A DNA stretch of 48,285 bases. Origin: Reclinomonas americana ATCC 50394. Lineage: Eukaryota. Under the pieces are notes generated by a model. It did not search any database and was not told where the DNA came from. It worked only from the letters and a program-made list of their open reading frames with translations. Location: NCBI GenBank assembly GCA_048213135.1, contig PS015169.1, positions 85,733-134,017 on the forward strand, given 5' to 3'. The position numbers and the translations under genes are program-made. Positions within the stretch are counted from its first letter, which is position 1. The number at the start of each line of letters is the position of its first letter. Shown here piece after piece: positions 3,918 to 40,542 of this stretch.

Positions 3918-6900
3918 ATGAAGCGATTTCAGTTGCAACGAGTGGTGGGCAATGGACTCACACTGCCGCGCGTGATCGACATTGATGAGAACGCAAGGTG
4001 TGTGTCTCAGAGAGAGAGAAAGAGAGAGCGAATAAGAGAGAGTCATGAGCGATTGTGATCGATACACTCACTCATTCACTCACTCACTCTCTCGCTCACT
4101 CACTCTCTCTCTCTCACAGTCGCTCTCTCTCTCTCTCTCTCTCGCTCACTCACTCACTCACTCACACACACACTCACTCACTCACTCACTCATTNNNNNN
4201 NNNNNNNNNNNNNNCACTCACTCACTCACTCACTCACTCACTCACACACACACACACTCACTCACTCACTCACTCACTCACTCACTCACACGCTCACTCA
4301 CTCACTCACTCACTCACTCACTCACTCTCTCTCTCTCTCCTTTCCCTCCCTCCCTCCCTCTCCCACTCACCCACCCACTCACTCACTCACTCACTCACTC
4401 ACACACACTCACTCACTCACTCTCTCTCACACACACACACTCCCTACCCTTCCCTTCCCCTTGCCTCACTCGCTCACCCCTCTCTCCTTCCCTTCCTTCC
4501 CATCCCTCCTCCTCACAGGACCATCTCCACCTTCAACCCCACCGACGACCACCTGCCGATCACGCACTCGATCACAGAGATTGCCCGATTGGAGTTGCGA
4601 AAGAGGCGATCGCTCTTCTTCATCTTCCTCACGCGTGACTGACTGATCTCACCACGTGCGCAGTGTGGCTCCGGAGGTTCCCGATGGTCGTGGATTGGTG
4701 CTGCAGATGCAGGGCATGAAAGAGTTGAGAATACGAGGGAGAAGCACAGGGAGTGACTGAGACAGAGACAGCTACGAGCTGTGCGAGGCAGAGCAGGGAA
4801 AGAGACTGCTATCCATCGCTCATGCTGTCCGCTTCAACAATTGCCCTTAACTCTTTGCTATTTTCTCTCTGCGCCACAGGCAAACGTACATTGCGCGATC
4901 CAGCGATGTGTGCGTCCAGATCTGCAATCTGGTCAACAGCTTGCGAGTGCATGCGCCGATGGTTGCGTCTCTTGGCGTCGAGTTTTTTGTTTTGTTGTGT
5001 GGTCCTCATGTCTTGTTTCAGACGCGCGATACGGCGCCTGTCGTGCACGATGGTCACCTCTACCGCATCATGCACACGCATGCGGGAGCTCCGTCGTCTT
5101 GGTGAGCCGAGTGACAGAACGGGATGGGTGTCGTGAGCAGCTCAGAGTTCGGAACAGTCAGCTCAGCGCATAGTCCGCACACAGCTCAGCGCACCGCTTT
5201 CACGCAGCTCAGCGCACCGCTTTCACGCAGCTCAGCGCACCGCTTTCACGCAGCTCAGCGCACCGCTTTCACGCAGCTCAGCGCACCGCTTTCACGCAGC
5301 TCAGCGCACCGCTTTCACGCAGCTCAGCGCTCTGCTTTCACGCAGCTCAGCGTTCTGCTTTCACGCAGCTCAGCGCTCTGCTTTCACGCAGCTCAGCGCT
5401 CTGCTCTCACGCAGCTCAGCGCTCTGCTTTCTCGCAGCTCAGCGCACTGCTTTCTCGCAGCTCAGCGCACTGCTTTCTCGCAGCTCAGCGCACTGCTTTC
5501 ACGCAGCTCGGCACACCGCTTTCTCGCAGCTCAGCGCACTGCTTTCACACAGCGCAGCACACCGCTTTCACGCAGCTCAGCGCTCTGCTCTCACGCAGCT
5601 CAGCGCACTGCTTTCACGCAGCTCAGCGCACTGCTTTCACGCAGCTCAGCGCACTGCTTTCACGCAGCTCAGCGCACTGCTTTCACGCAGCTCAGCGCAC
5701 CGCTTTCACACAGCGCAGCACACCGCTTTCACGNNNNNNNNNNNNNNNNNNNNNNNNNNNNNNNNNNNNNNNNNNNNNNNNNNNNNNNNNNNNNNNNNNN
5801 NNNNNNNNNNNNNNNNNNNNNNNNNNNNNNNNNNNNNNNNNNNNNNNNNNNNNNNNNNNNNNNNNNNNNNNNNNNNNNNNNNNNNNNNNNNNNNCTCAGC
5901 GCTCTGCTCTCACGCAGCTCAGCGCTCTGCTCTCACGCAGCTCAGCGCACCGCTTTCACGCAGCTCGGCACGCTGCTCTCACGCAGCTCAGCGCTCTGCT
6001 CTCACGCAGCTCAGCGCTCTGCTCTCACGCAGCTCAGCGCTCTGCTCTCACGCAGCTCAGCGCTCTGCTCTCACGCAGCTCAGCGCACTGCTTTCTCGCA
6101 GCTCAGCGCGCTGCTTTCACGCAGCTCAGCGCACTGCTTTTCACGCAGCTCAGCGCACTGCTTTCTCGCAGCTCAGCGCACTGCTTTCTCGCAGCTCAGC
6201 GCACTGCTTTCTCGCAGCTCAGCGCACTGCTTTCTCGCAGCTCAGCGCACTGCTTTCTCGCAGCTCAGCGCACTGCTTTCTCGCAGCTCAGCGCACTGCT
6301 TTCTCGCAGCTCAGCGCACTGCTTTCTCGCAGCTCAGCACGTCGCTTTCCTTCTCCCTCCCCCTCCTTTCTTCTTCTCCCCTTTCCTCATCCTCCTCCTC
6401 TTGCCCCTCTTCCCTTTCTCTCCGTCTCCTTTCCCCTCTCCCGCCCGCCCCCCGCTGACCTTCCCCCCATCCACATGCAGCGTCATCGAGTGGTTCACAC
6501 TCAGCGAGGACCGCATTCAGAGTGTGCTCTCGCGCGGCAGCCACGATGTGCTCTCAGACATGCCGGTAGCCGACATTCGATTCGTGCAACTCTCCGAGAA
6601 TCTGTACCCCACTCCCAGTGGCGATCTGTTCGTCTTTAGTACCATCACCGCCGATGCGGTCCTCACTGGTGCGTTAATCACGTGCTCCATTTTTTGTTTC
6701 TCAACCGGCACTCACTCTTCTCTCTCCACAGTCGGCTGTCGGACCGAGAACGAGCGAGCCACGTGGGTCAAGGCGATCCAAGCAGTTCGCGAGAGGCACC
6801 AAGTCGCGTCGCCGTCCTCTCTGTACTCGTCGGTGAGTAGCAATCCTTCGAATTGGCATTCTGTCTCCTCTCTCAATCCCCTTGTCTCTCCCTCCTTGTT

Positions 6901-8034
6901 TGCAGCGTCGACAGCACCAACACAGGCCCTCGTTGGCCGAGGAGATGGACTCGATGCCTGACTCGCCAGTGGCTCCAGCATCAGCTGCCGCCGCCGCCGC
7001 CGCCGCCGCCGCTCCGAACATGCAACAAATGGTCACCCCCACCCCCGATGCTCCCGTCTCCATGTCGTCGTTCGCGTCGCACCTGCCGTACGTCTCTGGC
7101 TCGCCCACACCCTACAGCAAGTCCAACGGGTCCATGGTGCTCAACTCGGCAGTGCGCGAGTCGCGCTCCTTTGTCGAGACACACCCACCGCACAGCGTCG
7201 CACCGACCAACATGAGTGCGCGCTCAACACCGGCTGCGACAGCTGCCGCCGCCGCCATTCGTCGCATCCCACTGAGTCTGGAGTCACTTTCGCACGATGG
7301 CGGCTCCACCAATGGGTACTACCACGACGCGCCATTCGACGATCGGTTCGACACACTTTCGCAACAGCTGCCTGGCTACCCGCGTCAGACAGAGCTGGGA
7401 CGAATCATGGATGTGACGTCGCCGAGACGGCACCCGCTGCACTTGTCGTACAAGCATCACGGGTGAATCAAATAGCGGCGATTAAGTGTTTGCTGTGTGC
7501 GTGAGCTCATTTCTTCTCTCACTTGCGCAGTCTCGGCATGGGTTCCGAGTTCGCCGTGAGTCAGTCGTCAACTGGCAAGAGCGTCAAAGGCTCGTCGTCG
7601 CGTGCCCTCTTTTTTCGAAGAGAGATTATCGCTTACCGTGCGCACTTCCGCAGATGCCAATCTCTCCAAGGACGCTTCAGTGCTGCGTGCACAGCGTGAT
7701 GCTGCGCACTTTTTGCAGAGTGCACTGCTTTCTGCGTTGCAAGGGGAGGAGGGCAAACTGACCGAGGAAGGTTGGTGTCACAATGAGTGCGCGCTTTTCT
7801 GGTGTGCTATTTTCCTCTCATGCCGAAGCTTTGTCGTGCAGTCAATCACAATCCGTCAGTCGTCGATCACTTCCTGACGTACCAGTCCATGATTCCCATC
7901 CTGGACATCCAGCTGCAGAATTTGTGGTTGCCGTCTGATCAGGAGTACTTGGAGAGTGTGGCTGGTCGTGCGCCGACAGAGGTGTGTTGATCGGAGATGG
8001 ATGAGCAGCGAGACCATTGTTTTCTCTCTCTCGG

Positions 8035-8076
<42 letters not shown>

Positions 8077-11000
8077 NNNNNNNNNNNNNNNNNNNNNNNN
8101 NNNNNNNNNNNNNNNNNNNNNNNNNNNNNNNNNNNNNNNNNNNNNNNNNNNNNNNNNNNNNNNNNNNNNNNNNNNNNNNNNNNNNNNNNNNNNNNNNNNN
8201 NNNNNNNNNNNNNNNNNNNNNNNNNNNNNNNNNNNNNNNNNNNNNNNNNNNNNNNNNNNNNNNNNNNNNNNNNNNNNNNNNNNNNNNNNNNNNNNNNNNN
8301 NNNNNNNNNNNNNNNNNNNNNNNNNNNNNNNNNNNNNNNNNNNNNNNNNNNNNNNNNNNNNNNNNNNNNNNNNNNNNNNNNNNNNNNNNNNNNNNNNNNN
8401 NNNNNNNNNNNNNNNNNNNNNNNNNNNNNNNNNNNNNNNNNNNNNNNNNNNNNNNNNNNNNNNNNNNNNNNNNNNNNNNNNNNNNNNNNNNNNNNNNNNN
8501 NNNNNNNNNNNNNNNNNNNNNNNNNNNNNNNNNNNNNNNNNNNNNNNNNNNTTCTCTCAGTCTCCCCTCTCTCGGTCTCTCTCTTCTCTCTCTCTCTCAT
8601 ACTCCCCTCCTTCCCCATGTCCCCCTTTCCCCTTTTCCCCTTTCCCCCCTGCACAGGACATGGTCCGCATGGTCCGCCGCGAAGAGGAAAAGCGACAGCT
8701 GGCCAAGCAAATGCGCGCCGAAGGCATCGAGCATGGTCTCGGCGATGTGCTGGACGCCACCCCCGCCGACGACAAACCACAATCGCCGAGTTTTGCCGCC
8801 ATGGATGCGAATGGCGGTCCATACTCGATGCGTGGACGCTACGCTGGATCCACCACGGCAACATCGGTCACGCCGTCTTCTGCGTCGGCCACCGCTGCAG
8901 CGGTGGCGGCTGGCGGTGTTGCAAATGGTCGGGGCCATGCTCTCCGCTCCCCGACCATCGACAAGGGCGAGACACAGGCTCCCGCCAGCGAACATGCAGG
9001 CGATTTTGTGCGTCACATAAGCACGTACGCTCATCGCTATCGAATCACTCACTTTCTTGATCTCCAATATGCAGACCTCCTTCCGCGAGATCCCCACACC
9101 ACGCGGCGACGGCTCACCTCCTCGGCAGACACCAGGTGGCCCCATGTCGGTGCCTGTTCCGCCGGCGGCAGCGGCGCCACGCGTCACTCCGGGTGCGCCC
9201 TCACCGCCGCCACCACCGCCAGCAGCAGCAGCACCAACCCCGCCACCTCAGTCTGCCCCTCCTGCTTCCTCCTCGTCCTCTATCCGCACCACTGACAGCT
9301 CGCTGTTGCTGGGTTCGTCCACGCCGCTCCCAGACGACCAGCAGCCTTCGCCGCGCAAGGAACGACGCGCTCGCCTTGCTGGTTCGACACCAACTGCTCC
9401 CGCATCCGCTGCCGCACCGCCTGCACCACAGCCCACAAGGTCAGGCACGACGACGGCGACAGCCGTCGCCTCGGATACCGCAGGCACATTTGTGCCACCG
9501 ACCGGTATGGCCTGGCCACCACCACCGCCGCTGATGGACTCGCCGGCGTCACCACCGGATCCACGCACCATCACCGTCACTAGCCCAATTCTCTCCGAGG
9601 ATGAAGACAGCAACCGCTCGCCGCAGCGCCTGGGCACGCCCAATCCCCTGCATCAGTCGAGGAGATTGCGGCGAGATGAGCAACCAGCTGCGGCTGCTGC
9701 TGCTCCAGCACCTCCACCTGCGCCTGCCCCAACACCAGCACGAGCTCCAGCCCCAGCACCTGCGCCACCTGCCCCAGTACCAGCACCACCGGCGGCAGCA
9801 CCTCCAGCACCTCCTCCGCAGGCGCCAACACCCGTGGGCGACGCATCATCCGCCGCCTCGTCGGCCAATTCGTCGCGCTCACAGACACCGGCAGCCGACG
9901 ACAATGTTGCGTCTCTGACGTGATGCGAAACACCATCGCTGCGATTACTGACAGTTTGTGTCCAACAGCCTCGCGCGGCGTCTCGCGAAAAGCTGAAAGC
10001 TCGTCTTCGTGAGAGGATGCAGGCGAGAGGTGATTCGCCCAGCACCGACGGTGCCATGTCTGTGTCGCCCAGTTGCGTACCTTGAGTCTCTTTTGGGTGC
10101 TGTTTCGTTTGCTGGCTCATTGGCGAAATGCAGGTGCGGAGTTGTTGGAACTCAGTCGCGGCACGACGCCCGTCACACCAGCGGCCGCCACGCCGAATTC
10201 CATGGATGGCACTGGTATGTCTCTGTGTGGTGCTGTCGAAAGCAAAGTGCCTCCATCTCACTCTCCAGTGCACAGGCGATGAGGCAGACGGAGATCAACG
10301 GAAGCGCATCCAGGCCGCCATTCAGGAGCGCTTGAAAGCCAAGCGGGCTGGTACGTACAGGCTCTCGCGCCTGATTGTCGTGCGTTTTTTATTGCTCTCG
10401 CTTTGTCGCTCTCCCCTTGTCGCTCTCGCCCCTTGTCGCTCTCGCCCCTTGTCGCTCTCGCCCCTTGTCGCTCTCGCCCCTTGTCGCTCTCGCCCCTTGT
10501 CGCTCTCGCCCCTTGTCGCTCTCGCCCCTTGTCGCTCTCGCCCCTTGTCGCTCTCGCCTCTTGTCGCTCTCGCCCCTTGTCGCTCTCGCCTCTTGTCGCT
10601 CTCGCCTCTTGTCGCTCTCGCCTCTTGTCGCTCTCGCCTCTTGTCGCTCTCGCCTCTTGTCGCTCTCGCTTCTTGTCGCTCTCGCTTCTTGTCGCTCTCG
10701 CTTCTTGTCGCTCTCGCTTCTTGTCGCTCTCGCTTCTTGTCGCTCTCGCTTCTTGTCGCTCTCGCTTCTTGTCGCTCTCGCTTCTTGTCGCTCTCGCTTC
10801 TTGTCGCTCTCGCTTCTTGTCGCTCTCGCTTCTTGTCGCTCTCGCTTTGTCGCTCTCTGTTCATCTCTCTCTCTCTCTCTATTCTCCCATCGTCCCCTCC
10901 CTTCATCCGCACTCCCTTTCTCTCTGTCCCTTCTCTCCCTCCTCCCCTGTTCCCCATCGCTCTTCCTCCTCCTCCCTCCCTTCTCACTGATTCCGTGTCG

Positions 11001-11745
11001 CAGAGCGCGCCGGAGGTGTCACTCCCACCGACAACAGTCCACGCGCAACTCCCGAGCTCGGTGCCAACGGCACCGCGCCGCTTACCACCTCTCCACAACC
11101 ACCCATGCCTGGCTCACCGGACTTTTCGTCCCCCTTCAAGGACTGGCGAGAGCAGAGTGTCGTAGTGTTGCGTCGCGCTGCATGCATTCTTTCCCATTGC
11201 CTGTGCTATCATCACTCCTCACATCTCCTCCCTCTCTCACAGTCGCCCACCCTCCCGCTCTCGCTCCCGGCCAGGGGAAGGAGACGGTCCTCAAGGTGCT
11301 GCTGGTGCGCCTCTCGGAACCGACTCGGACAGCATGATGCGCAAGGTGCTGCACGATGGCTTCAAGTTCAACAAGTTCTCCCAGTCGTCCAGCAGCCATC
11401 ACCAGCGCCACGTGTATGTGTCGCCAGACATGCAGTACATTATGTACTGCGACCCGAAGAAGCCCAAGGAGGTCAAGCAGGTGGCCGTCAGCGATGTGAA
11501 TGGCATTCTGGAGGGCCCCGTCGATGTGCCCACCTCGGTATTCCGGCGTGCTCCGAAGCCGTCGTGTACATTTACCATTGTATCCACCGGGCAGTCTCTC
11601 GGTGCGTCTGTGCCACGCAATGTCGTTTGCACTGTCGGATCTCGCTCATTCGCCCTTCCCGCGTGCAGTGCTGGAGACCGAGTGGGAGGACGAGAAGCGA
11701 ACGTGGATGGACGCCTTCAAGTGGCTGATTGCACACCGTCGCTGA
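3918..11745 (+). CDS. Large PH-domain protein with Pro/Ser-rich disordered linker (about 19 exons)
   Basis: Phase-consistent GT-AG chain from ATG 3918 to TGA 11743-11745. Central PH domain (VVHDGHLYR...GCRTENERATWVKAIQ) and C-terminal PLC-type PH domain (LHDGFKFNKF...RHVYVSPDMQYIMYCD...CTFTIV...LETEWEDEKRTWMDAFKWL), plus a possible N-terminal PH-like fold. Gaps could hide further exons. Confidence 0.7.
4065..4440. repeat. (CTCA)n/(CT)n/(CA)n microsatellite in first intron of PH gene
   Basis: Directly visible. Confidence 0.95.
5181..6338. repeat. Intronic 23-nt minisatellite, consensus GCAGCTCAGCGCACTGCTTTC(A/T)C
   Basis: Head-to-tail copies with point variants and no spacers, interrupted by an N gap. 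Confidence 0.95.
10402..10850. repeat. Intronic 16-nt minisatellite TTGTCGCTCTCGC(C/T)(C/T)C
   Basis: Period 16 visible, e.g. units starting at 10433 and 10449. Confidence 0.95.
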
Positions 11746-11948
11746 CGAGTCATTCGTTTTTTTGTTTTGTGAGTGTATGTTTTATATGCCGAGTACATCA
11801 TCACTGTCAACATCGTGTATATTCTGAGTTTTGTTTCACCTCCAACACTTGCATTGCCCCACTACACACGCAAACCTGTTTTTCGCTCTCCTGTTTGCGG
11901 TACCATCCCATAACAACAAAAACCAACCCCACTCCGCCTGATTCCGCC

Positions 11949-14900
11949 TCATTCATCGCCCACCGCCAGCGCCACACGTGCACTGGCGGTCGCGGCCGCA
12001 CGGCCGCCTCGTCGACGGGCATACGATTGCGCCACCTCCTCCTCATCCTCCTCGTCCTCCTGCATCGGTGCATCCTCCACAATGCGGACGGTGCGGTGTC
12101 GCGGTGCTGCGGCAGTTGCCGACGCCTTGCCAGAGACAGTCAGCGCGGCGGCGCCGGGGACCGTGAAGGCGGCCGGATCAATCGTCACGCTCTTGGTCTG
12201 GTTGTGGGTCTTGTAGATGCCGACGAGGCGATCGGCCAGCTCGAACATGTTGTTGCGCAGGGAGATGATGACAAACTGCGCGTTCTTCGTGCGCTGCTTG
12301 ATGTAGTTGGCCACAATGCTGACGTTCTTGAAGTCGAGCGCCGCGTCAATCTCGTCCATCACATACAGCGGCGTCGGCTTGTAGTGATGCAGCGCAAACA
12401 CCAGCGCCAGTGAGCTCAGCGTCTTTTCGCCACCCGACAGGTTGCTAATGTTCTTCCAGCTCTTCTTCGGCGGTCGCACGCTGAACACGATGCCCTCGGA
12501 GAATGGATCCAGGCTGTCGACCAGCTCCAGCTCGGCGTCGCCGCCCTGCGGGAAAAAGGCAAAGGGAAGTGGTGAGGGGAGGAGAAGGAGAAGGAGAAGG
12601 AGAAAGAGAAANNNNNNNNNNNNNNNNNNNNNNNNNNNNNAGAAGGAGAAGGAGAAGGAGAAGGAGAAGGAGAAGGAGAAGGAGAAGGAGAAGGAGAAGG
12701 AGAAGGAGAAGGAGAAGGAGAAGGAGAAGGAGAAGGAGAAGGAGAAAGAGAAGGAGAAGGAGAAGGAGAAAGAGAAAGTGGAGGAGATAGAGAAAGTGGA
12801 GGAGAAAGAGAAGGAGAGTGAGAAAGAGAAGGAGAAGGAGAAAGAGAAAGGAAGAGAAGGGGGAGAGGAGTGGAGGAGAGAAGGGAAGACAAATTAGATT
12901 TGAATAGGGGAGAAAGAGATAAGAAGAACGATAACGGACAGAAGTGGTGGAATGGAAGCCGAAGAGACTGAGGAGATAATAGAAGAAGCCCACAGAGAAA
13001 GAGACAGCCATTTCCTTGCTACTCGCTCTGCTCTTACCACTCGCTCGTTCTCTCCCCTTCTATCCACCTCTTTCCCTTTCCTTTCTCCCTTCCCTTCCCG
13101 TTGCCTCACCAACGTAATCATCTGGTACATCTCCTTCAGCTTCATGGTGATGACCGAGAAGCCGGCCATGAACTCCTCCAGTCGCTGTTTCCTCAGCTCG
13201 TCGAAGCGACGCTGCGACGCATTGCGTCGATCAGTGACCTCATTCAACTCGCCGAGTCGCTCCTGGTAGTCGCGGTCCTTGGCACGGTACTCGGCAATGG
13301 CCGCCAGGTTCGGCTTCAGGTGCCTCAACGACTCGTCCACAATGGCGATCTCGCGCTCCAGCGACGTCTTGTCCAGGCGTTGCAGCTCGCGCTCGGTCAG
13401 CTCGCCAAACGTGTAGCGGCCACGCTGCTTGGGCAGTGGCGGTGGCGGTGCGGCCTTCTGCGAGCGCCTCTGCGGCTGTCGCTGTGCGCCTCGGCCGCGT
13501 CGTCGCTGACGCTGCTTCTGGCTGCTCGGACCCGCACCGTCCTCGTCTTCCACCTCATCCTGTTCCGCCTCTTCCTCTTCTTCCTCCACCTCCTCCCGCT
13601 CCTCCGCCTCGTTCTCCTTGTCTTCGCCCTCGCCGTCTTGCTCGCCCTCGGCGTCCTCGGCGGGCAGGAATTCGGCGATTCTGTGTGATTTCCTAACCAT
13701 GAGCAACCCGTATCGTGGCTGTCGAGTGAAGACGAGCGCACGCAACTCTTGGTTCTGCTCCACCACCTCCAGCAACTGCTTGTCCCAGTGCTTGACGCGT
13801 GAGGCACTCTCCTTGACCACACGGAGCAGGTCGTCCAGCTGATTTTGCACATCGATTTCGGCATCCTTCAGCATGTGCACCTTTTGCTTCAGCCCGCCGT
13901 ACGACGACTGCACGCCGTCCAGCTCCTCCTTTTTCTCGTCCAACAACTGCGCGACACACAATAGCACGTGAGTGAACGCCGAGGGTTCTTATATCCAGAG
14001 CAGTGCTGGGGTCCGACTCACCGCCTGGATCTCCTTGAACTTGTTCATCACAATGAACGCCTGGTCCTCCAGTGCCTTGAACTCCTGCGTCTTCTCCTCC
14101 AGAGTGCGGTCGAGCTCCTCCAACTCAGCCTCCATGCGCACAATGGCTTGCTCCGACTTTTTGGCGTTCTTCTCGCACGTGCGCAGCTGCACCTCGGCCT
14201 TGGCACCCGCACGCTCCGCGTCGTCCAGCTCCTTGGTCAGCGACTCGACCTTGTACTTTTGCGATTGCAGCCGCACGCCGCCCACGTCCGAAATCTGCTT
14301 CTGCAGAGCGTCCACTTGCTGCTGCAGTGCCTGTGCGTCCTCCTCAGCCCCGGCCAACTCGCGCTCGCATTGCTTGATGCGCTTCTCGGCCTCCTTGACT
14401 TGTGCAGCAGTCTCGCGCGACATGACGCACCGCGGCTCAATCTCCTCCAGTTGCTGTTCCAGGTCGGCACGCTGGGCGGTCTTGGACTGCGGAGACGAAG
14501 TAGAGAGTTGTCAGAACGCCTTCAGTTTTCCTCATTCTCTTCTCCCTTTCCGTGTACAAACCTCAAACTCCATGCGAGCCTTGCTGATCACTTGCTCGGC
14601 CTCCTTGGCGTCCCTCTCCAGCTGCGACAGTTGCTGCTCAAGCGCCTCGCGGCGCGCCGTCAGCTCTTGCAGCTGCTGTTGCAGCTCGGCGACCGATGCA
14701 CGAGTGCTCTCGACCTCCTGCTGGGTGACCGTGCCCGCCGAACGGAATCGCGAGCTCATGCCACCACGCGACGGCTTGTCGCCACCGCCACTCATGGTAC
14801 CCGACGTGTCAATGAGTTTGCCGTCCAGGGTGACCACTCGGTGACGACGCTGCTTGTTGTAGGCAATTCGTGTGGCCTGGTCCAAGTCGCGTGCCACCAG

Positions 14901-18836: not shown

Positions 18837-18890
18837 CAAGAAATTATTCCTTCGCGACAACTCGTCACTGTGGACACACTGAGTGAGTGA

Positions 18891-27119: not shown

Positions 27120-27145
27120 NNNNNNNNNNNNNNNNNNNNCTACTA

Positions 27146-27219
<74 letters not shown>

Positions 27220-27676: not shown

Positions 27677-30224
27677 ATGGACTCACGGTGAACACGCGCT
27701 CCGGACCTATCCGCGGCTACATGCGCGATGGAGTGCGGCTGTTCTTGGGAGTGCCGTTTGCGCAGCCGCCGGTGGGAGATTTGCGGTGGGCGAACCCGGT
27801 GCGCGAGAATGCGTGGATGTCGGTGAGGGGTGAGTATGACAGCCGGAGGGGGAAGGAAAGGGAGGCAGGAGGAGAAGAGATGAGAAAACAGAGACATCAC
27901 GAGATGGGAGAGGTCATGAGTGGCACGAATGGAGAACGTGAAAAGAGGACCCAAGTGCTGAAAGCAGAGTGCAGCATCGAGGGATCGACAGAAGCAAAGA
28001 AAGAACGAGTGACAGAATGAGACACATTCTGAGCGCGTGCGGCAGAAGCGAGATGAGGCTTAGAGCGCGTGCGGCAGAAGCGAGACGCAGTGGAGGGTTG
28101 CGAGAGGCTGGCACGTTAAGAGTGACGGCAAGTGAGATAATGAGCACGTGCGTGAGCGGCGAGAAACTCGGACTCGGTGCTGAGATAACGAGACTGGGGA
28201 GACTGTTGGAGGAAATGAGCGAGGGAACAGCGCGATTGGGTTTCTGAGTAATACCCACGCAGATGCCACGCAATTCTCGGCCGGTTGCATGCAGGATTGC
28301 GTGCTGCCGCCCAACACTTGCCCCCCGACCGCATCTCCGAGGTATGTGTCTCTCTCTCTCTCTCTCTCTCGCGCGCGCTCTCTCTCTCTCTATGCATGTG
28401 TGTGTGTGTGTCCGTCTGTATGTCCTCTTCTCTCTCTCTCTGTCTGTCTCTCCCTCTGTCTCTCCCTCTGTCTCTCCCTCTGTCTCTCCCTCTGTCTCGC
28501 CCTCTGTCTCCCTCTCTCTGTCTCTCCCTCTGTCTCTCCCTCTGTCTCTCTCGCTCTGTCTCTCTCGCTCTGTCTCTCTCGCTCTGTCTCTCTCGCTCTG
28601 TCTCTCCCGCTCTGTCTCTCTCGCTCTGTCTCTCTCGCTCTGTCTCTCTCGCTCTGTCTCTCTCGCTCNNNNNNNNNNNNNNNNNNNNTCTCCCTTTGTT
28701 TCTCCCTCTGTCTCTCCCTTCCCCTCCCTCTCCCCCCTCTGTCTCCCCCGCTCCCTCCCCACATCTCACACTCCCTTCTCCTTTACCGCCGCCAGGACTG
28801 CCTGTACCTCAACGTGTTCGCCCCGCCCGTCTCGCGCGCCACTCGCCCACTGCCGGTGATGCTCTTCCTGCACGGCGGCCGTTTTGAGCAGGGCGGTGCT
28901 GGCATCTTCCTGTATAGCGGCATGAACATTGCTAACACGACCGACACGATTGTGGTGACCACGAATTATCGTCTCGGAGCGTTCGGATATTTGGGTGAGG
29001 CGGGGGATGCAAAGAGGGAGAAAGAGTGAGAGAGAGAAGCTGAGATGTGGAGAGAGAGGAAAAAAAGGGGATAGATGCCGCGAGAAAGAGTGTGTATGTG
29101 TGAGATTCGGAGAGACTAATTTTTTCTTGAGGCGCACTTAACACGTAGTCGCCATCTCCCACCCTCCATCTCCTTCCCTCCATTTCACCCCTTCGCCACC
29201 CCCCTTCGCTCTCCCCCTTCGCTCTCCCCGTTCGCTCTCCTTCTTCGCTCTCCTTCTTCGCTCTCCCCCACCCCTTCGCTCTCCCCCTTCGCTCTTCCCC
29301 CTTCGCTCTTCCCCCTTCGCTCTTCCCCCTTTGCTCTTCCCCCTTCGCTCTTTCCCCATGCTCGTCCCCCGTTGCTCTTCCCCCTTTGCTCTTCCCCCTT
29401 TGCTCTTCCGCTCTTACCCCTTTGCTCTTACCCCTTCGGTCTTCCCTCCGTCTCACCCGCCATCTCTCCCACCACGCAGTCACCGAGGACCTTGCTGGCG
29501 ACTTTGGCACGGAGGACCAGCGCGAGGCCATGCGGGTGTGGCAGTCTCTTCCCTTGCCCACTTTCCCACTCAACTCCACTCTCGTCTCACGCATCACTCT
29601 TTGTCCGCAGTGGGTCCGCGACAGCATCGCCAACTTTGGCGGCGACCCGAACAACATTACGCTGTTTGGCCAGTCGGCCGGCGGCACCTCGATTGCCGTG
29701 CACATGGCGTCGAACAAGAGCACTGTTTCGTCTCCTTCTCCACTCTCCTCTCTCATAACGTTGTCTCACCGCTGCGGTGCGCTCGCAGGGCCTGTTCCAC
29801 CGCGCCATTATCGAGAGCAACCCGTTCGGCTTGCCGTTCAAGAACGTGAAGGAGAGCGTGCAGTTTGGTGGCGAATTCGCCAAGGTCATTGGCTGCGGCG
29901 ATCGCGATGTGTCCTGCTTGCGCGGCCGCACCCCGGCGCAAGTGGTGACGGCGCAGAAGGAGGCGAAGCACACGGACATTTTCAATGTGTTGTTGTGTGA
30001 GTTTTGGTTGCCGGCTTCATGTTCACTCTTTCGATAGTTTCCCTCGCTGCTATCTTTCTCTCGCTGTGCTCTCTCCCTCTGGCTGTGCTCTCTCGCCTCT
30101 CGCTGTGCTCTCTCGCCTCTCGCTGTGCTCTCTCGCCTCTCGCTGTGCTCTCTCGCCTCTCGCTGTGCTCTCTCCTCTCGCTGTGCTCTCTCCTCTCGCT
30201 GCGCGCGCTCTCTCTCTCGCTGTG

Positions 30225-30269
<45 letters not shown>

Positions 30270-30770: not shown

Positions 30771-30841
<71 letters not shown>

Positions 30842-32924
30842 CATTCTCTTCCCTTCGCTGCTCTCTTCCTCTCGCTTCTCACTCCACCGTGTCCTTCCAC
30901 CTCCCTCTCGCACAGCCGTGTACCGATGGGCTCCCACTGTCGGCCACGCTGACGTCCCGGAGCAGCCGCTGGCCCTGTTCATGCGCGGCCACCTGGCCAA
31001 CCCCGTGCCGCTCATGATTGGCACGGTCGCCGAGGAGGGCTTGATGTTTATCCACATGGTCAGTGTGAATCTCATGTCCACGTTCCAGTGATAATTTGCT
31101 GAGTGGATGACAACAGGGTCTGGCCAAGCCGCTGCCATCGGTCGAGTACGACGCCATTCTTGGCCTGATTTTCAACGTCAAGGCCTTTGAGGTCCGCAAC
31201 GAGTACCCAGCGCCGTCGAACACCACCGATTACCGCGGAGTAATGTCCACTGTTGCGTGAGAACGTGTTTTTATGCACTGAAGGCGCTGAGAAGGACTCA
31301 CACTTGTGTGCTCGGCAGATGGGCACTGATTACATTTTCTCGTGCCCGGCTCGTGCCATTCTCAATGCGTTGCGTTGTACATTGTCCGGATTCGGCGCTG
31401 TTGGTGTGTGTGCCTCACGTTTCTTGTCAACAGCTACTTGAAGTACTGGCCCAGCACCCCGGCGTTTGTCTACTTCTTCGACCGCCCGCTGCCGTTCCCG
31501 GGAGTGTGGGTGAGTGTGGTGGGAGAGGGTGAAGGCGAGAGGAGAGAAGAGGAGAAGGTACAGTGCAAAAGATGAGTCGAGGAGCGAGAAACGAAGATGA
31601 GAGTTGGCAAGAATGTTAGGAAAGTGTAACAGATACATCAGTGAGGGAAGAGCACAAGAGAAAAGGTGCACGTGGATAATATGGCTCTATTCTCAACATT
31701 GGTAGCACGATTGTTAACAGTTTTAGTCGTTGAAGGAAGCACACTAGACTTGTTGGCGATCGTTTTAGATGCACATTGTGGTGTTATTGTGTCGAGACAA
31801 GTGAAAGCCTCTCAATCCCTCACCCTCCCCCCTGTGCTCTCCCCCCTGTGCTCTCCCCCCTGTGCTCTCCCCCTTCGCTCTCCCCCTTTGCTCTCCCCCT
31901 TTGCTTCCCCCTTTGCTTCCCCCATTGCTCTCCCCCCCTTGCTCTTCCCCCATTGCTTTCCCCCATTGCTCTCCCCCTTCGCTCTCCCCCCTTTGCTCTC
32001 CCCTCATTGCTCTCCCCCTTTGCTTCCCCCTTTGCTCTCCCCCATTGCTTTCCCCCATTGCTCTCCCCCCTTTGCTCTCCCCTCATTGCTCTCCCCCTTT
32101 TCCCATCCGCCTTCGCTCTCCCCCCATTGCTCTCCCCCAATGCTCTCCGCCCTTGCTCCCCCCTTGCTCTTCCCCTTTCGCTCTTCCCCTCAATGCTCTC
32201 CCCCATTGCTCTCCCCTTCGCTCTCCCCCCTTTGCNNNNNNNNNNNNNNNNNNNNNNNNNNNNNNNNNNNNNNNNNNNNNNNNNNNNNNNNNNNNNNNNN
32301 NNNNNNNNNNNNNNNNNNNNNNNNNNNNNNNNNNNNNNNNNNNNNNNNNNNNNNNNNNNNNNNNNNNNNNNNNNNNNNNNNNNNNNNNNNNNNNNNNNNN
32401 NNNNNNNNNNNNNNNNNNNNNNNNNNNNNNNNNNNNNNNNNNNNNNNNNNNNNNNNNNNNNNNNNNNNNNNNNNNNNNNNNNNNNNNNNNNNNNNNNNNN
32501 NNNNNNNNNNNNNNNNNNNNNNNNCCTCCCCCACTTGCCCTCCCCCCTTTGCTCTCCCCCATCCCCTTCCCCCCTTCTCACCCCTTCCCCCTTACAGGGC
32601 CCCGACTACTCCTACTGCGACGGCCACGCCTGCCACGGCTCCGAGCTGGCATTCGTGTTCGATAGCCCCAAGCCGGCGATGAACCTGCAGTTCCCGTCCG
32701 ACGATCAGCACGTGTCGGACAGCATTGCCAGCTACTTTGCGGCGTTTGCCGACAATGTGAAGCCCGATCCGAATCCCGCCACCTCGCGCCTCTCCTACTG
32801 GCCGGCGTGGGAGTCGCAGAAGCAGCTGTCTATGGGCTTCGACTGGCCGTTGCAGGTGCAGTCGGGACGCAACAGCGACAAGTGTGATTTCTGGGACAAG
32901 GTCGGGTATGAGACGGGGGTGTGA
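27677..32924 (+). CDS. Type-B carboxylesterase/cholinesterase family protein (5' exon missing; one apparent frameshift)
   Basis: FLGVPFAQPPVGDLRW, SEDCLYLNVF, oxyanion loop HGGRF, NYRLGAFGYL, WVRDSIANFGGDPNNITLFGQSAGG (nucleophile Ser), GTVAEEG (Glu), CHGSEL (His). Stop at 32922-32924. The frame breaks at the C6 run 28321-28326. Confidence 0.93.
28425..32235. repeat. Several pyrimidine-rich 12-18-nt minisatellites in carboxylesterase introns
   Basis: CTCTGTCTCTCC/CTCTGTCTCTCTCG units at about 28440-28668, CCCTTCGCTCTCC-type at about 29200-29440, TCGCTGTGCTCTCTCGCC at about 30060-30230, TTGCTCTCCCCC-type at about 31830-32235. Confidence 0.9.
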
Positions 32925-33459: not shown

Positions 33460-36400
33460 ATGCGACAGCGCATTGTCGCTCTTCTCCTGCTCTGCATTGT
33501 GTTTGCCCATGTGCTGCTCTCCATTGTGCATGCGGTTGCCGCGGTGGTCAGTGCATGCGCTGTTAGCAGTGCTTCTTTGCAAATGCCTCACTCTTTACGT
33601 GCGTGCATGCACGCAGGATGTCACTGACAACGACGATGATGATGATGATGTTGATGATGATGACGACGACGAGGATGACGATGTCGATGATGTTGGCGAA
33701 GAGCAAAAGCATGAATCACCCCCACCGCCACCACCACCCCCGCCCCCGCCTCCTCAGTCATCTCGCTTGACATCTGCTCTCGTTATTGCGGGTTTGTTGT
33801 ATTAGCACATGTATTTAGCAGCGTCCCCCACCTGAAGTCACTCGCTGTGAGCAGCTGGACACATGAGTGACACGTTGCGAGTGTCATTGGATGCTATCGC
33901 CGCACTCGGCAACACACTGGCTACCTCCAAGCTCTTCAGCGGTGACAAGTTGGTCTCTGACGAGTCGGACGTGTTTCCAGTGGTCGTGGTCGCGGGCTTG
34001 CAGAGCTCGGTGAGCCTCTCTCGAACTTATTGCCGACTGCACCAGCGCATTGACATTTGGCGTGCGCGTACAGGGGAAGTCCTCGCTTCTGGAGCTTCTC
34101 AGTGGCGTCGCTGCTTTTCCCACTGATGTGGGCTTTTGCACCAAGTCACCAATCATTTTTCGCTATGTGCCCGTGGAGGCAAGCGACAGCTCTGTTGGCG
34201 TGCCGCCAAAATCAGCTGTTGTGACGTTGAAGTTACCCGGACGGGCAGAGCCAGTGTCGCATGTGGTGAACATGTATGATGATGATCATGTACAACAGAC
34301 TTTTAGGTGTGTTAACAAAGAGGAGAAGCGCGTGGGAGAGCAGGCATTCTAAATTGCAGAGATAGTCAGTGGATATTTTGCAAGTGTGATGAGAGAAAGA
34401 CCGTGCAGCGGCCTTTGTGTCCTCGCCGCTAATCACGCTCTCTGGTGTACACTTTCTTCTCACTTTTTCCGCTTCCTCTTACAGGAAGATCCAGGAGCGC
34501 ATCGTCAAATTCTACGACTCCATTGGCGACGGCTTGACAGAAGATACGGTCGTCATCAGTGTTCGAGCTCCAGGCCTCCTGCCGTTTATGTTTGTCGATC
34601 TGCCAGGCATGACCGCCGTTGCGTGCTCCTGTGCGAGGCCTCTTGTGTGCGTCCACTTGTGTACCGATGTGTGCCGTTCTTGCAGATTGGTGCACGTCGG
34701 GCCACATCCGAGAGTATAACCAGAAAGTACGCTACTCGCAAGAGTACGGTAGTGCTTGCTGTGCACCCGGCAAACCAGCACCTGGAGAACGATTTCAGTC
34801 TCGGCACGTTTACGATGCAGGAGCATGCAAATACGTGCGTCGAGTGCGCGCATGTGCTTCCGAAATTTCTCTCTCTCTCTCTCCCTCCTTACCCATCTTT
34901 GTACTTGAATCTCATCTCCACTACGTCCACTCCCTCAGCATCACCATCGCCTTCACCAAGATGGACCTGGTCACTAACATGAACGAGATTGACGAGAACC
35001 TGCTGCGGCCGGCACTGACGAAGAACATCACGGCAGAGAACCCTGCAATCGCGTTCGTTCGAGGTCGTACTGTGGAACAGGGCGACCTTTCGCCGCAACA
35101 GCTCCTTGTGAGTGAGAGCAAGTATTTTGCAAAAGCAGGTCCGCAGGTCGCTCGACTGAAGCACTTTGACCGCAACCGCGTTGTATTTGGGACACCGTCG
35201 CTGGTACTTCGCGTCGCCAAGGTAACCACCTTGTCGGGTTGTGCTGTTTCCATTATCTACGGCAGAGTGCTCAGTCGTTCCCCTCAGGCATTTGTTCACA
35301 AATTTGCTGAACACACAATTCCGATGCTGCGCGAGCTGATTAACAAGCGTGCCAAGGAAGTGGATACTGCCCTTCGCAACTGCATTTTCGGAGATAAGGA
35401 CAGTTTCATTGTCGAGGCTAGCAAGTTGCCTCAGTTGCGAGTTCTACTGGTGGACATCGCTGCGCGAGGCGATCACGCGAAGCTGTTGGTCAACTTGGCC
35501 AGCGGCGTGTTCCAGGCCGACTTTCGCCAAGCAGTTCTTCGCGGGTCCGTCCGTGATGCCGTCATCTCGTCCGTGGAACAATTTCGAAGCAGTGCTGGCT
35601 CGTTTGCCGAATTCCAGGAGCGATGTGATCGCGCTGTCAATGCTGTTGACGAAGCGATCCGCCGAGCGCTGGAACAGACGTATGCAAAGCACAAGGCGGT
35701 ACGTGTACTGTGCGGCTGCTGGATGAAATACAGTCTCTACTTGGTGCACTCACAGTCGTATGCTGCTTGTGCAGGCATATGGTACAGTCCTGCCGTATTT
35801 ATATATCTGTTGTTCTTGTCGGCTGCTGACTCCGGAACCGTCTCGTCGAATTTTACAGACCGCATCGTTGGCTTCCGACATGCGATCACAGAACTGATAT
35901 CTGCGAAAGCGATTCCTCCTTTGCACGCAAAAGTCAAGGCTGCGGTCCCGCCAGTGTTGCAACGGCTGCAGGCATTTGCGGAAGCCTACAACGTACGTCA
36001 CTTTTCGTTGCTGCGAAACGCGGTAGATCTCTTCTAATTGGCGGTGTCCAAATAGGTGCCGTTTGTGCACCCTCGGGATCCACAGCACCCGTATGACGCC
36101 AAGTTCATGTGGACACTGCAAGTCAGTGTGGTGGTGTTCAGCAAAATCCACGAATTGCTGATAAATGCTGTCAAGGACGATATTGACAGTGTCCGTCTCT
36201 GGAAGACTGCACCGCTGGTTCGTGGTCAGCAATAGAAGTTTTCTGCATTGGTAAGTATGTGGAACTGACGTTTTTGTGAACAGGCTGCGAATGCTGCCTT
36301 GCCAGCCGGTGTGCTGTCCAGTTCGTATGTTGAGCTGTTACAGACACGATTCAACATTCACGCGCTCCAGCACCATGTGGAGGCCGTCAATAGGGCGTCG

Positions 36401-36673: not shown

Positions 36674-36704
36674 CGGCGATCATGAGTACTTCTGTGGGGA
36701 GAGT

Positions 36705-36753
<49 letters not shown>

Positions 36754-36877
36754 TTCCTTAGAGCATTCTTGCGGTGCCAGTTGAATACAGTTGGATGATA
36801 TCGATGCGTCACAAAATGCTGAGCGATTAGACGAAAATTGGTATCTTGAGAGACGTCGACGTGTTATAAAGTTCCAA

Positions 36878-37591: not shown

Positions 37592-37876
37592 GGAAATCAA
37601 GGGTCTCGTTTGCGATGACCAGCACTGCAGAAGAGCGACACTGACGGACAAGGAGTTGGCGAGAGACGAAAAGAGGCAAGGGCATTTCACGGAACTCAGG
37701 GAAAGAGTCAAAAACATGTACACTAATGCGGAGGAGAAGGAGAGAAAAATGCAGAAAGTCGGACCCGGGGACCAGAAAGAAAGGGCAAGAGGTCGGAAGT
37801 GAGCAGTGTGCAAGTGTGAAAGTGGGACACAACAGATCAGCATGACTGCATGAGATGCAGAAATGCGAGTCGCTAT

Positions 37877-37911
<35 letters not shown>

Positions 37912-38312
37912 GTCTGTCTCTGTCTCTGATCTCTCTTTTTCAGTGTGTCTGCGCGCATGTGTGTCACCAGCACAGTCTCATATTCATGCTGCACAATTGC
38001 AAACAGTCACCTCCATGCGCTGCACACTGTCACACTGCACTCTCTCGCACGCGCACACGTTTGCACGCCCCAATTCGCATAGCCCACAACCACACGCGGA
38101 CACCACAAACCTGCAGAACCCAAAAACGAAACAAAACACAGCAATTGCGATGTTTCTGCACACTTCCCGAAGCCTGACTACGCGACCCATGACGACTGGA
38201 CTCGTCGATTCTGTCTCTTCTGTCTGTCTTCTGGGGTCTTGCAGCAGGTGGTGGGACGTCATTCATTGGCCTATTTCTCCGAAGTTGTCCTTTTGCTTGT
38301 CGCAAGGGAGCA

Positions 38313-39028
38313 ATGATGCCAACTACACGAGCTGGTTCTCTGCACCCCTTGCGCTTTGTGGCATATGCTGGAGTCGGTGCAACAGCGCGCTACCTCTTCG
38401 GGTCCGACTGCAGGTATGTCCACCCCAAACACGCATTCTCTCGATCTCATGATCACTCTCACTATGTTTTGAGTGTCCGCAGTGTATGGTTGTCACTCTT
38501 CTGTCTCTTGGCAGTAATCGCTGCTGAGTGTCTCGCGGCCACCCATGGCAGCACGCAAGGTCAGTGTGCGACGAACTTGAAAGAAACACGCGCGCTATTT
38601 GTGGACCCTTGAGATGGATGATGACTTGCCTCACGTGTCTATTGTCTCCAGTTGCCGCAGGTGCTATTCGCAGGCAGGAGGCAGTTGCGACCCCAGTGTG
38701 GATCGCTGGTGGTAGAATGGCAGAGCTCTGGGGGAAGAATGGGCCCGGGCCACGGCCTGTGCGACTTGAAGATCACGCTGATGACTCTCTGCCAGCGCAA
38801 GACTGTGGCACGAGTAACGCTCTTGTAGTCCGCACAGTCTTCTTCCCATGCGCTCATGTCGTGCCGGCGCCTTGTCGCACTTCATGCCTGCACACATCCA
38901 AGTTGCGCGGTCAAAAGTAACTGTTTCTGCGATTGAGACTTTGCTATGCGTGCTCATTCCCTGCCAGCTGTCCCGAGTGTGGAGTGTCGATTACCGGTAT
39001 CTGCAAGCTCTACACAATGCCCTCGTGA
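38313..39028 (+). CDS. Membrane-anchored RING-like protein, divergent paralogue 1 (5' end uncertain)
   Basis: Exons 38313-38413, 38483-38559, 38652-38901, 38968-39028. Hydrophobic segments followed by DCGTSNALVVRTVFFPCAHVVPAPCRTSCLHTSNCPECGVSITGICKLY. Same intron phases as, and visible similarity to, the next gene. Confidence 0.6.
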
Positions 39029-39464
39029 GCGTACGCGAAGGCTGCACTTGCGCATGCGCATGCGCGCGCCAAGTTCCACACTGCAGCGTGGCCGATCAAT
39101 TCGACAATACTCTCGGTGCTTGCCGCGAGTGCCTGCTGCTTCCTGTCAACGGAGAGTGCATTATCCCTCACTCACTCCCACGTACTTGTTGATCAGCACT
39201 GGCCATGTGTTATAATTATTTGATGTTTCTGCGCAGTCGCTCTTGTCGCGATCGCTATCGCTCACCTCGCTGTCGCTCTGTTACTGCCGCTCTGTGTCAC
39301 TGCCGCTCCGTGTCGCTGTCGCTCTGTGTCGCTGTCGGTTGTGCCGCTGTCGACGTCGCTCGTTGATCATGACTCGCTGCGCTTTACCTTCCAAATCTTC
39401 TCTTTTAATCCTTTGTGAACGCGTAAGTTGCTCTGTGAATGCACATTTGCGCGTCCACGGTGCG

Positions 39465-40542
39465 ATGGTTGAGCAACTGAGGCTCCTGCTTGTCGTTGTT
39501 TGTCTGGAGAGTGAAGTCAACTTCGCATCATTATGTGTAATTGCGGGACCTGCTTGCGTTCATTTTGCTATTGCGGATGCTATGCGTGTGGTGCCGTTGC
39601 TCCCGTATCGCTATGCAGTGTATGTAGCTGTGGGCGCAGTCGCCCACACGCTCTCGGGGCACTGGTTCGTCATCTATGCTCTCTCTCTCTCTCTCTCTTC
39701 CTGTGCACGCGCACACTCTTTCCTGCACCTGCCGCTCACTATTGCACATTGTTTTTCCGCAGGGCATTGTTGTCGTTCTTCAGCGTCTTCCTGTCAGCTG
39801 TGTTTGTCATCGAGATCTTCGCAGTCAATGTTTGCAAAGCGCATGGTTAGTGTGTGGTGGAGAGCGTGCATGAGAAAGTGAGAGAGGTGAGCGAGATGAG
39901 GGATGAGAGGGATCGAGAGTTCGAGTGTGCATGTGTGTGTGAGGGAGAGAGAGAAGGGCATATTGTCAGAGAGCTTGCTTGTTTGCATGAGTTCCACGAC
40001 AGTCGATTGTCAAGTTTGTTGTGCGTTTGGTGTAAGCTGTCAAGTGAGTCGTGATCTGGATGGCAAAGCCCTTACGATGAGCTTCGCGCTCTGTGGTTCT
40101 TGCACATGCAGATGTTGCAGACTCTGTCCAGATGCTGGGCGACGGGCCGAGTGCCGAAAGGAGGATGGCGATGAAGGCGAGCAAGAGGGCGCGCGCACAA
40201 GCGCCACATGAGGATGATCCAGTGCCTCTTGTGTGCAATGTCTGTTGCCACCGTGGTGTGCGAACCTTTTTCATACCATGCGGTCACGCTGTTGCCTGTC
40301 GGCAATGCGTCGATGAGATGCAGCGTCGAAACCAATTGACACTGTTGCGTTTGGAGAGTGTCTGTCTGACAGAGCGACTCATGATATGCGAGACCATAGA
40401 GCGAGTGCGTGCGAGAGGGACAGAATGAGTAATTCAGAGCTTACGCTGCTGCGCCAACTCGTCAGCGCTTATGTTCGCTTCACACTGCAGGTGTCCGCAA
40501 TGTCGTACTCCTATCTCCAGCGTCTGTCAACTTTGGACGTAG
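39465..40542 (+). CDS. Membrane-anchored C3HC4 (IAP/MUL1-type) RING finger protein, probable E3 ubiquitin ligase, 188 aa
   Basis: Exons 39465-39664, 39763-39845, 40112-40343, 40491-40542. Hydrophobic N-terminal half, then CNVCCHRGVRTFFIPCGHAVACRQCVDEMQRRNQLTLCPQCRTPISSVCQLWT* with all eight Zn ligands. Confidence 0.85.

Follow-up and report, generated by a model that had tools for sequence, protein, structure and literature searches.

The prevailing view is that 5′ splice sites, those of the minor spliceosome aside, form one degenerate family read by one U1 small nuclear RNA (snRNA). Roca and Krainer reportedly described shifted-register 5′ splice sites in human genes in 2009; in the shifted register, the first G of the intron pairs at the position normally held by the last G of the exon. 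Human variant U1 snRNA genes with altered 5′ ends exist as well, and the introner elements of some algae and other protists have a shared terminal sequence, shared interiors, and a narrow length range. Here we describe a set of short introns that begin with GTTGCG, most often GTTGCGT, in a stretch of 48,285 bases from Reclinomonas americana ATCC 50394 (contig PS015169.1, positions 85,733 to 134,017), which was analyzed as a whole and is called the window below. The analysis rests on the sequence of this one 48-kb window, and it points to a second, discrete, and separately recognized donor class, /GUUGCGU.

The closest described relatives are human sites that pair with U1 in a noncanonical register. 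In the portion of Tan et al. (2016, PMC4856993) available to us, 68 of 201,541 human sites are predicted to use the bulge +2/+3 register, and all validated noncanonical registers together make up 1.5% of sites. As in the class described here, the human shifted and bulged sites are cleaved at GU, carry the conserved G and U one base deeper and a U at +3, and do not rely on a G at −1. However, the human sites are rare, whereas the class makes up about 13 to 23% of the introns that could be defined here. Good pairing in the alternative register is a further trait of the human sites, and one that the class sites are predicted to lack, at least with the universal U1 5′ end. The class is also one fixed word with G-C at +4/+5, unlike the human sites, and is not the shifted image of a consensus.

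U12-type introns, which have expanded in Physarum polycephalum, offer a different likeness. They form a second class in the same genes, with a rigid, extended donor and a weaker pyrimidine tract, and in Physarum, according to the accessible part of the preprint (10.1101/2020.10.12.336362), an snRNA has co-evolved with an intron motif. The class donor, in contrast, is unrelated to [G/A]TATCCTT, and its introns have the ordinary CTNAY branch word and not CCTT[G/A]AC. A further comparison is with the diplonemid S. specki, in which a second U1 gene, changed at its 5′ end, exists beside the classical one (PMC12621601, as far as the available text goes). It is a precedent for the second U1, with a different end to pair with the 5′ splice site, that we postulate below. 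However, the alternative end in S. specki is a run of C and, in the same available text, is not linked to a discrete donor word, whereas the variant U1 postulated here is a hypothetical one, deduced from the donor word.

Twenty-three introns could be defined in three genes, those for SMC4 and a type-B carboxylesterase through homologue alignments and that for a dynamin-like GTPase through domain motifs and reading frames. Three of them start with GTTGCG, or four if a contested site at 31369 is counted, against an expectation of 0.07 (or 0.13) under a model of independent positions drawn from the same 23 donors (P = 4.6e-5, or 7.4e-6). A first-pass annotation of this DNA had proposed a second major donor class and had named such a model as the test of it; the model fails to account for the frequency of GTTGCG, and a second, discrete class is what the counts support. 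In an extended set of 53 introns, which is not donor blind, 12 have the GTTGCG donor and 0.48 would be expected.

The word itself is in excess in the window. Counted on both strands, GTTGCGT occurs 15 times against 5.74 ± 2.12 in dinucleotide shuffles, and none of 100 shuffles reached 15; GTTGCG occurs 44 times against 28.63 ± 5.07, and again no shuffle reached the observed count. Among the 16 heptamers of the form GTTxyGT, GTTGCGT is the sole outlier (6.2 expected under an order-3 Markov model). In a layout test that used neither coding frames nor a donor model, each GT on both strands was scored for a CAG 55 to 80 nt downstream and a CTNAY word with its branch A 10 to 25 nt before that CAG; the branch word and the ranges had been set after viewing introns of both kinds. 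This layout follows 14 of the 44 GTTGCG sites but 300 of 4,887 GT sites overall (6.1%; p = 2.1e-7), which ranks GTTGCG first of 217 hexamers, ahead of the known donor words GTACGT, GTGCGT, and GTTCGT. When length, branch distance, and acceptor were varied over 12 settings, GTTGCG stayed first in 10 and came second in the other two; as a heptamer, GTTGCGT (9 of 15 sites) ranked first of 381.

Individual introns were placed with a protein-to-genome aligner that we wrote for donor-blind splicing (BLOSUM62, GT or GC donors, AG acceptors, no donor matrix), with 20 SMC4 and 18 carboxylesterase homologues as queries. In SMC4, nine introns were each recovered with 10 or more of the 20 queries (range 10 to 20), and ten introns were found in the carboxylesterase gene. 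All donor sites are predicted from DNA and protein comparison, and our claims of excision extend as far as that. The 15 GTTGCG introns, including the contested one at 31369 and the possible ones at 13746, 11167, and 21620, are listed here in order of position, together with two introns that have variant donors.

688..754, plus strand: class intron in a fatty-acid-hydroxylase-family gene, GTTGCGG, 67 nt, phase 0
4594..4663, plus strand: class intron in gene A (no homologues), GTTGCGA, 70 nt, phase 2; manual reading
4724..4879, plus strand: intron with variant donor GTTGAGA in gene A, 156 nt; manual reading
4962..5021, plus strand: class intron in gene A, GTTGCGT, 60 nt, phase 0; manual reading
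9906..9968, plus strand: class intron in gene B (no homologues), GTTGCGT, 63 nt, phase 0; manual reading
10072..10133, plus strand: class intron in gene B, GTTGCGT, 62 nt, phase 1; manual reading
11167..11242, plus strand: possible class intron upstream of a PH-like open reading frame (ORF), GTTGCGT, 76 nt; intron-like layout
13681..13746, minus strand: possible class intron in the SMC4 coiled coil, GTTGCGT, 66 nt; intron layout, 1 of 20 alignments
15138..15201, minus strand: class intron in SMC4, GTTGCGC, 64 nt, phase 2, the best-supported member; 20 of 20 alignments
21558..21620, minus strand: possible class intron with a TAG end, GTTGCGT, 63 nt; intron layout
23053..23121, minus strand: class intron in an unnamed gene, GTTGCGT, 69 nt, phase 1; manual reading and two-class gene parse
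29725..29788, plus strand: intron with variant donor GTTTCGT in the carboxylesterase gene, 64 nt; 17 of 18 alignments, frameshift on read-through
31252..31318, plus strand: class intron in the carboxylesterase gene, GTTGCGT, 67 nt, phase 0; 12 of 18 alignments
31369..31433, plus strand: contested class intron in the carboxylesterase gene, GTTGCGT, 65 nt; 2 of 18 alignments
34618..34685, plus strand: class intron in the dynamin-like gene after the DLPG motif, GTTGCGT, 68 nt, phase 0; manual frame reading
38902..38967, plus strand: class intron in RING gene 1, GTTGCGC, 66 nt, phase 2; required to join the last CPxC
40344..40490, plus strand: class intron in RING gene 2, GTTGCGT, 147 nt, phase 2; required to join the last CPxC

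All 13 positions cited in the first-pass annotation carry the strings it gave: 11 GTTGCG sites, GTTGAG at 4724, and GTTTCGT at 29725. As it said, eight of the 11 read GTTGCGT (9906, 11167, 31252, 31369, 34618, and 40344 on the plus strand; 13746 and 23121 on the minus strand); the remaining three are GTTGCGA at 4594 and GTTGCGC at 38902 and 15201. The introns at 688, 4962, 10072, and 21620 were absent from it. Of its introns, homologue alignment fixes those at 15201 and 31252, completion of the RING finger calls for 38902 and 40344, and 4594 and 9906 have the sole GT donors that preserve the frame, whereas 31369 is contested and 13746 is not forced. It had further held that several of these donors are forced by protein conservation. 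This was overstated for the dynamin-like gene at 34618, where 29 alternative frame-compatible pairs exist.

Read-through at 15201, as at 31252, shifts the frame and leads to a stop. The RING genes lie about 1.5 kb apart, and their products are distant paralogues (43% identity over 30 amino acids, E = 3e-5). In the upstream exon of RING gene 2, the zf-C3HC4_3 profile ends at position 34 of 49, with the CPxC following the acceptor, and read-through gives a stop; read-through at 38902 in RING gene 1 also runs into a stop. A frame enumeration returned no pairs at 38902 and 40344 because the genes' own stops fall within the tested flank. Considered together, comparisons at the sequence level show the GTTGCG(T) sites to be real 5′ ends of ordinary-looking short GT-AG introns, lying beside canonical donors in the same genes.

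The two RING introns occupy the identical position and phase before the last CPxC, and both have GTTGCG donors, with interiors that cannot be aligned. Since the two proteins are paralogues, these introns are not independent cases; from their sequences, the pair is apparently one in which the donor word persisted while the remaining intron sequence diverged. This bears on the suggestion, made in the first-pass annotation, that the class was spread by an introner-like mobile element. Copies of such an element would have the common 7-nt start and the narrow length range seen here (60 to 76 nt in 13 of the 15), but, whereas introners share their interiors too, the class introns share their first seven bases only. 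When intron bodies were aligned locally, pairs of class introns had a mean score of 7.53 (105 pairs), pairs of canonical introns 8.45 (66 pairs), and mixed pairs 7.88 (180 pairs). Membership of the class thus brings no extra similarity of the interior, and the best BLAST matches between bodies are 9 to 16 nt long. We find the suggestion barely plausible.

The same sites could be taken for GC-AG introns that start three bases later (GTT/GCGT), with GTT left in the exon. Such an intron is always in frame and is an available alternative at every GTTGCG site for which the enumeration gave any pair, which leaves out 38902 and 40344. Homologues speak otherwise: the GT model is the better one in 116 of 116 informative homologues at 15201 and in 22 of 23 at 31252, with 1 tie, and even at 31369 GT is better in 12, GC in 2, and 2 are ties. 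The conserved word would also have to start inside the exon. We rejected the GC-AG reading, in which the extra residue is disfavored against homologues, and regard it as highly improbable.

Other sites are less firmly placed. At 31369, 10 of 18 alignments favor a rival pair, 31384-31454, with a GTCCGG donor; 31369-31433 has the typical layout, with a CTCAC branch 17 nt before CAG, and the rival pair is without a typical branch and acceptor layout. The 66-nt segment at 13746 is in frame and stop free in poorly conserved coiled coil, so that use of the donor is not forced; going by its sequence, 13681-13746 could be an optionally retained intron. In gene A, 4594 is the sole GT donor among 8 frame-compatible pairs, with a frameshift on read-through, and 4724 is the sole GT donor among 9, with a stop on read-through; 9906 in gene B is likewise the sole one among 17, and read-through meets an in-frame stop. 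The introns at 34618, 23121, 688, 4962, and 10072 fit the frames and the intron layout, at positions for which other frame-compatible GT..AG pairs also exist. Read-through leads to an in-frame stop at 23121 and to a frameshift at 10072. It also leads to a frameshift at 688, where the intron connects two open frames, the second with the FA_hydroxylase match, and where there are many alternatives. The intron at 4962 has a branch-like CTCAT and a T-rich tract before its CAG, and read-through is open, so it is not forced. The exon after 34618 weakly matches positions 119 to 145 of the Dynamin_N profile (E = 0.08). A query with the dynamin-like exon found no homologue, no Pfam match beyond the N-terminal GTPase motifs was found in the protein, and a search of 1.84 billion representative proteins with its 365-amino-acid C-terminal exon gave a single weak relative (E = 8e-10). 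Spliced alignment is impossible for 34618 because the protein is an orphan. Finally, 11167 precedes the first ATG (11334) of the next clear ORF, and the segment at 21620 is in frame and open on read-through.

Given such sites, one has to ask whether most of the GTTGCG introns are artifacts of prediction by hand. Besides the unforced site at 13746 and the contested one at 31369, several of the genes lack homologues, no intron is assigned to 29 of the 44 GTTGCG sites, and a test with an acceptor matrix, described below, was negative. Against this, homologues fix 15201 and 31252, the word is enriched over shuffles and ranks first of 217 in the layout test, and T at +7 sets the proposed donors apart from the remaining GTTGCG sites. 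A general artifact is, in our judgment, very unlikely.

What the class donors have in common is not what canonical donors in the window have. Among the latter, G at −1 is found in 18 of 21, G at +5 in 20 of 21, and T at +6 in 16 of 21. Among the class donors, G at −1 is found in 1 of 15 (p = 3e-6), the commonest base there being A (7 of 15), and G at +5 in none of 15. T at +7 is present in 11 of 15, compared with 4 of the 29 GTTGCG sites that lack an intron assignment (p = 1.5e-4). Both conserved bases, G and T, thus lie one position further into the intron, as the first-pass annotation had noted for the G. It had derived the word from GTGCGT, taken to be a locally common donor; GTGCGT is less common than GTGAGT, the commonest canonical donor, the two accounting for 1 and 5 of 23 donors in the homology set and for 5 and 9 of 53 in the extended one. 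Nor is the variation within the word what a shift of the local consensus would give. Canonical donors of the form GTGxG have A, T, and C at x in a ratio of 13:9:6, whereas the ratio in shifted GTTGxG donors is 1:0:12, with C at +5 nearly invariant (12 of 13).

T at +3 is by itself fairly frequent among canonical donors with G at +5. GTTTGT occurs three times in SMC4, and GTTGGT and GTTCGT are found elsewhere (16035, 15566, and 14561, minus strand; 7771 and 42951, plus strand; 21423, minus strand). This unusual local tolerance may be the background from which the GTTGCGT class arose.

Beyond the donor, the class introns look much like their neighbors. Introns in the window are mostly 58 to 110 nt long and end in CAG, with a CTCAC, CTCAT, or CTGAC-like word 10 to 30 nt ahead of the 3′ end. 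All 15 class introns are GT...AG, with 14 CAG ends and 1 TAG end, and 14 of 15, the exception being 34618, contain CTNAY with its A 9 to 40 nt from the 3′ end, judged by motif, which is the same motif as in canonical introns. The 3′ ends do differ in strength: on an acceptor matrix built from 19 canonical introns (leave-one-out), the median is 5.94 for canonical introns and −1.39 for the class (p = 0.0025), and the pyrimidine fraction at −22 to −3 is 0.76 versus 0.65 (p = 0.0175). Class introns also have more G (0.28 versus 0.22) and less C (0.25 versus 0.30) than canonical ones, and by eye their branch-like word seems to lie nearer the 3′ end. Folding of the 15 class introns was no better than that of shuffles (z of −1.15 to +0.84), and that of 15 canonical introns was likewise unremarkable (−1.21 to +1.75). 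Structure-assisted splicing was set aside, the z-scores being unremarkable in both intron classes.

How might such a donor be read? In one explanation, ordinary U1 (and U6) would read the class in a shifted or bulged register, with weak pairing offset by U1 proteins, pseudouridines, or, the introns being very short, cross-intron interactions. The motif is formally G/GUGCGU with the first intronic G changed to U, and the scarcity of G at −1 (1 of 15) and the T at +7 (11 of 15) are what such a register would give. Registers of this kind have been proven in human cells, as stated in the available part of PMC4856993. Standard U1 is also surely present, because the canonical donors fit the universal U1 well. 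The pairing of the class donors is another matter. We predicted duplexes with RNAduplex, using the universal U1 5′ end as printed in PMC4856993 and leaving register, bulges, and loops free. In the best register, the mean is −8.03 kcal/mol for 20 canonical donors, −2.83 for all 4,997 GT sites, and −1.64 for the 15 class donors, which are therefore no better than GT sites at large (p = 0.09). Under the same assumption about the U1 5′ end, the class donors show neither clearly better U1 pairing in an alternative register nor the U1 complementarity of U2-type sites (G+5 and the usual G−1).

If ordinary U1 were reading a shifted register, shifted forms that pair better should be in use, yet GTTGAGT, the shifted form of GTGAGT, is found 3 times with 6.95 expected, so it is not enriched, and GTTGTGT, from the same comparison of GTTxyGT heptamers, 6 times with 9.1 expected. 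The C at +5 would be mismatched, yet nearly all GTTGxG donors carry it. The human bulge +2/+3 register, for its part, is predicted at the 68 of 201,541 sites mentioned above. The view in the first-pass annotation that the motif is GTGCGT plus an extra T, read by ordinary U1 through a bulge, thus finds no backing in the duplex energies, in the counts of GTTGAGT, or in the bases at −1; because G at −1 is nearly absent, we favor a shifted register over a bulged one. The poor U1 duplexes, and the fact that the class is not a shifted image of the local consensus, suggest that ordinary U1 is not the whole story, and reading by ordinary U1 and U6 is an explanation that we take seriously but consider rather unlikely.

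Our preferred, though tentative, explanation, to which we would give somewhat less than an even chance, is that a dedicated reader acts beyond ordinary U1 alone. As the word is fixed over seven bases, the reader must see all seven. We imagine that the class is read one nucleotide off the normal register, so that the first G of the intron would occupy the place of the last G of the exon and G+6 and U+7 the places of G+5 and U+6, while cleavage would remain at GU. The simplest candidate, judging from the donor word, would be a variant U1-type snRNA with the 5′ end ACGCAAC. Such an end would differ from the universal ACUUACC at three positions and, in the shifted register, would pair along the whole heptamer. 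One can envision a further step, a third, RNA-defined mode of intron recognition, in which a U1-like snRNA with ACGCAAC, perhaps with a matching U6-type change, would have co-evolved with /GUUGCGU in about 1 in 6 introns; this fuller version seems to us possible but on balance doubtful.

Several points weigh against a class of this breadth with its own reader. Homologue alignments extend to two or three class donors only, and the others come from manual frame reading in genes without homologues. The apparent share of the class is biased upward because flagged sites were inspected first, and a two-class gene parse, with 3 GTTGCG donors among 39 introns, serves as a lower bound; that parse overlooked gene A, gene B, both RING genes, and most of the esterase gene. 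With this bound included, we place the share of definable introns somewhere between 8% and 23%. When GT-hexamers were counted upstream of strong acceptors as judged by a position weight matrix, GTTGCG was not enriched. Canonical donors were barely enriched either, and we judge this test underpowered because CT microsatellites swamp the matrix. The duplex energies assume the universal U1 5′ end, which may not be that of this host, and they leave out pseudouridines and U1 proteins. Rfam scans detected no snRNA gene in the window, and the variant U1 is one that we infer; at a permissive threshold, the only matches there were sub-threshold ones that are microRNA-like or small nucleolar RNA-like, several of them on simple-sequence repeats. 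In addition, U6 would have to accept G-C-G at +4 to +6 after U1 leaves, so a variant U1 alone would be insufficient.

The reader need not be an RNA. A sequence-specific protein, or some other U1-independent recognition of UUGCGU at the start of the intron, would supply the specific reader that so constant a heptamer calls for when its pairing with the universal U1 is poor, and the lower pyrimidine content at the 3′ ends of class introns would fit as well. However, we identified no candidate for such a protein, and 5′ splice sites are as a rule read by RNA-RNA pairing. We know of no precedent for protein-only reading of such a donor word, and we consider it unlikely.

A divergent minor spliceosome, with U12-like snRNAs that co-evolved with the new donor word, would explain the rigid, extended donor and the weaker pyrimidine tract, both reminiscent of U12-type introns. 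In the Physarum lineage, about 20,899 U12-type introns are found with a co-evolved U12 snRNA, according to the accessible part of 10.1101/2020.10.12.336362, from which we also took the defining motifs. Those motifs are missing from the class. None of the 15 class donors resembles [G/A]TATCCTT, for which the window has no exact match; the matches in the window, 52 in all, have one mismatch each, and most fall within a 10-nt tandem repeat. CCTT[G/A]AC, which is part of the U12-type branch word TTCCTT[G/A]AC, is in none of the 15 GTTGCG introns; it occurs 11 times in the window with 9.1 expected, once (4845-4851) within the GTTGAG variant intron. The branch-like motif of the class is the canonical CTNAY. 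A U12-like origin is thus very improbable, and the dedicated U1-type reader remains the explanation that we prefer.

Off-register 5′ splice sites are already known; a dedicated snRNA, if present, would be a new kind. In a full-text search of the literature, GTTGCG, GUUGCG, and GTTGCGT turned up as primers, guides, and microRNA sequence, and among the matches listed no title or abstract opening described such a donor class. A lineage with one fixed heptamer at a sizeable share of its donors would be a natural experiment in splice-site recognition and could show a route by which recognition diversifies, be it a register shift, a variant snRNA, or a protein reader. There is a practical side too. 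A gene finder that has learned one donor matrix will overlook class introns or put them in the wrong place, as our own single-model parses of the window did. An ab initio parse with our own codon, acceptor, and intron-length model and donors limited to GT scored antisense ORFs well and missed many genes; there is no donor-blind catalogue of the whole window because codon bias outside SMC4 is too weak.

The window, which belongs to a draft assembly, has a G+C content of about 57% of called bases and 14 runs of N, 4,009 N in total. The following genes were identified by Pfam search of stop-to-stop ORFs, apart from RING gene 1.

About 250-2400, plus strand: fatty-acid-hydroxylase-family gene; Pfam
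Minus strand: CDP-alcohol phosphatidyltransferase gene; Pfam
18260-12132, minus strand: SMC4 gene; Pfam
27.6-32.9 kb, plus strand: type-B carboxylesterase gene; Pfam
33863-36037, plus strand: dynamin-like GTPase gene; Pfam (N-terminal GTPase motifs)
Minus strand: ankyrin-repeat gene; Pfam
38717-39020, plus strand: RING gene 1, RING-like; manual reading and weak similarity to RING gene 2
40150-40560, plus strand: RING gene 2; Pfam (zf-C3HC4_3)

RING gene 1 gave no Pfam match and was recognized by eye and by its likeness to RING gene 2. The spliced SMC4 coding sequence is 3,993 nt long, or 1,331 codons, and stop free; its product is at most 40% identical to each of 120 homologues, and the homologue searches gave no near-identical protein.

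Simple repeats crowd the introns and gene flanks (4216-4518, 1180-1311, 16650-16720 on the minus strand, and 34860-34885). Runs of (ACTC)n and (TC)n lie within a long intron, 3998-4518, and a (GGA)n run abuts the gap at 1312. TCTCTCT occurs 413 times with 62 expected, and many of the 14 assembly gaps adjoin simple-repeat runs. A tandem array with a 10-nt period at 19925-20313 (minus strand), about 30 copies of GTTTCCTT, looks like a minisatellite rather than a donor set.

At esterase intron 2, the alignments pick a GTGTCT donor at 28346 (10 of 18), and a textbook GAG/GTATGT lies 4 nt upstream (28342); the frame argument is unreliable here because the intron holds an assembly gap. A carboxylesterase relative of 1,066 residues (P0158), which comes from a metagenome bin of Cercozoa, is fused to RING-finger domains; in the window, the esterase and RING genes are separate, about 6 kb apart.

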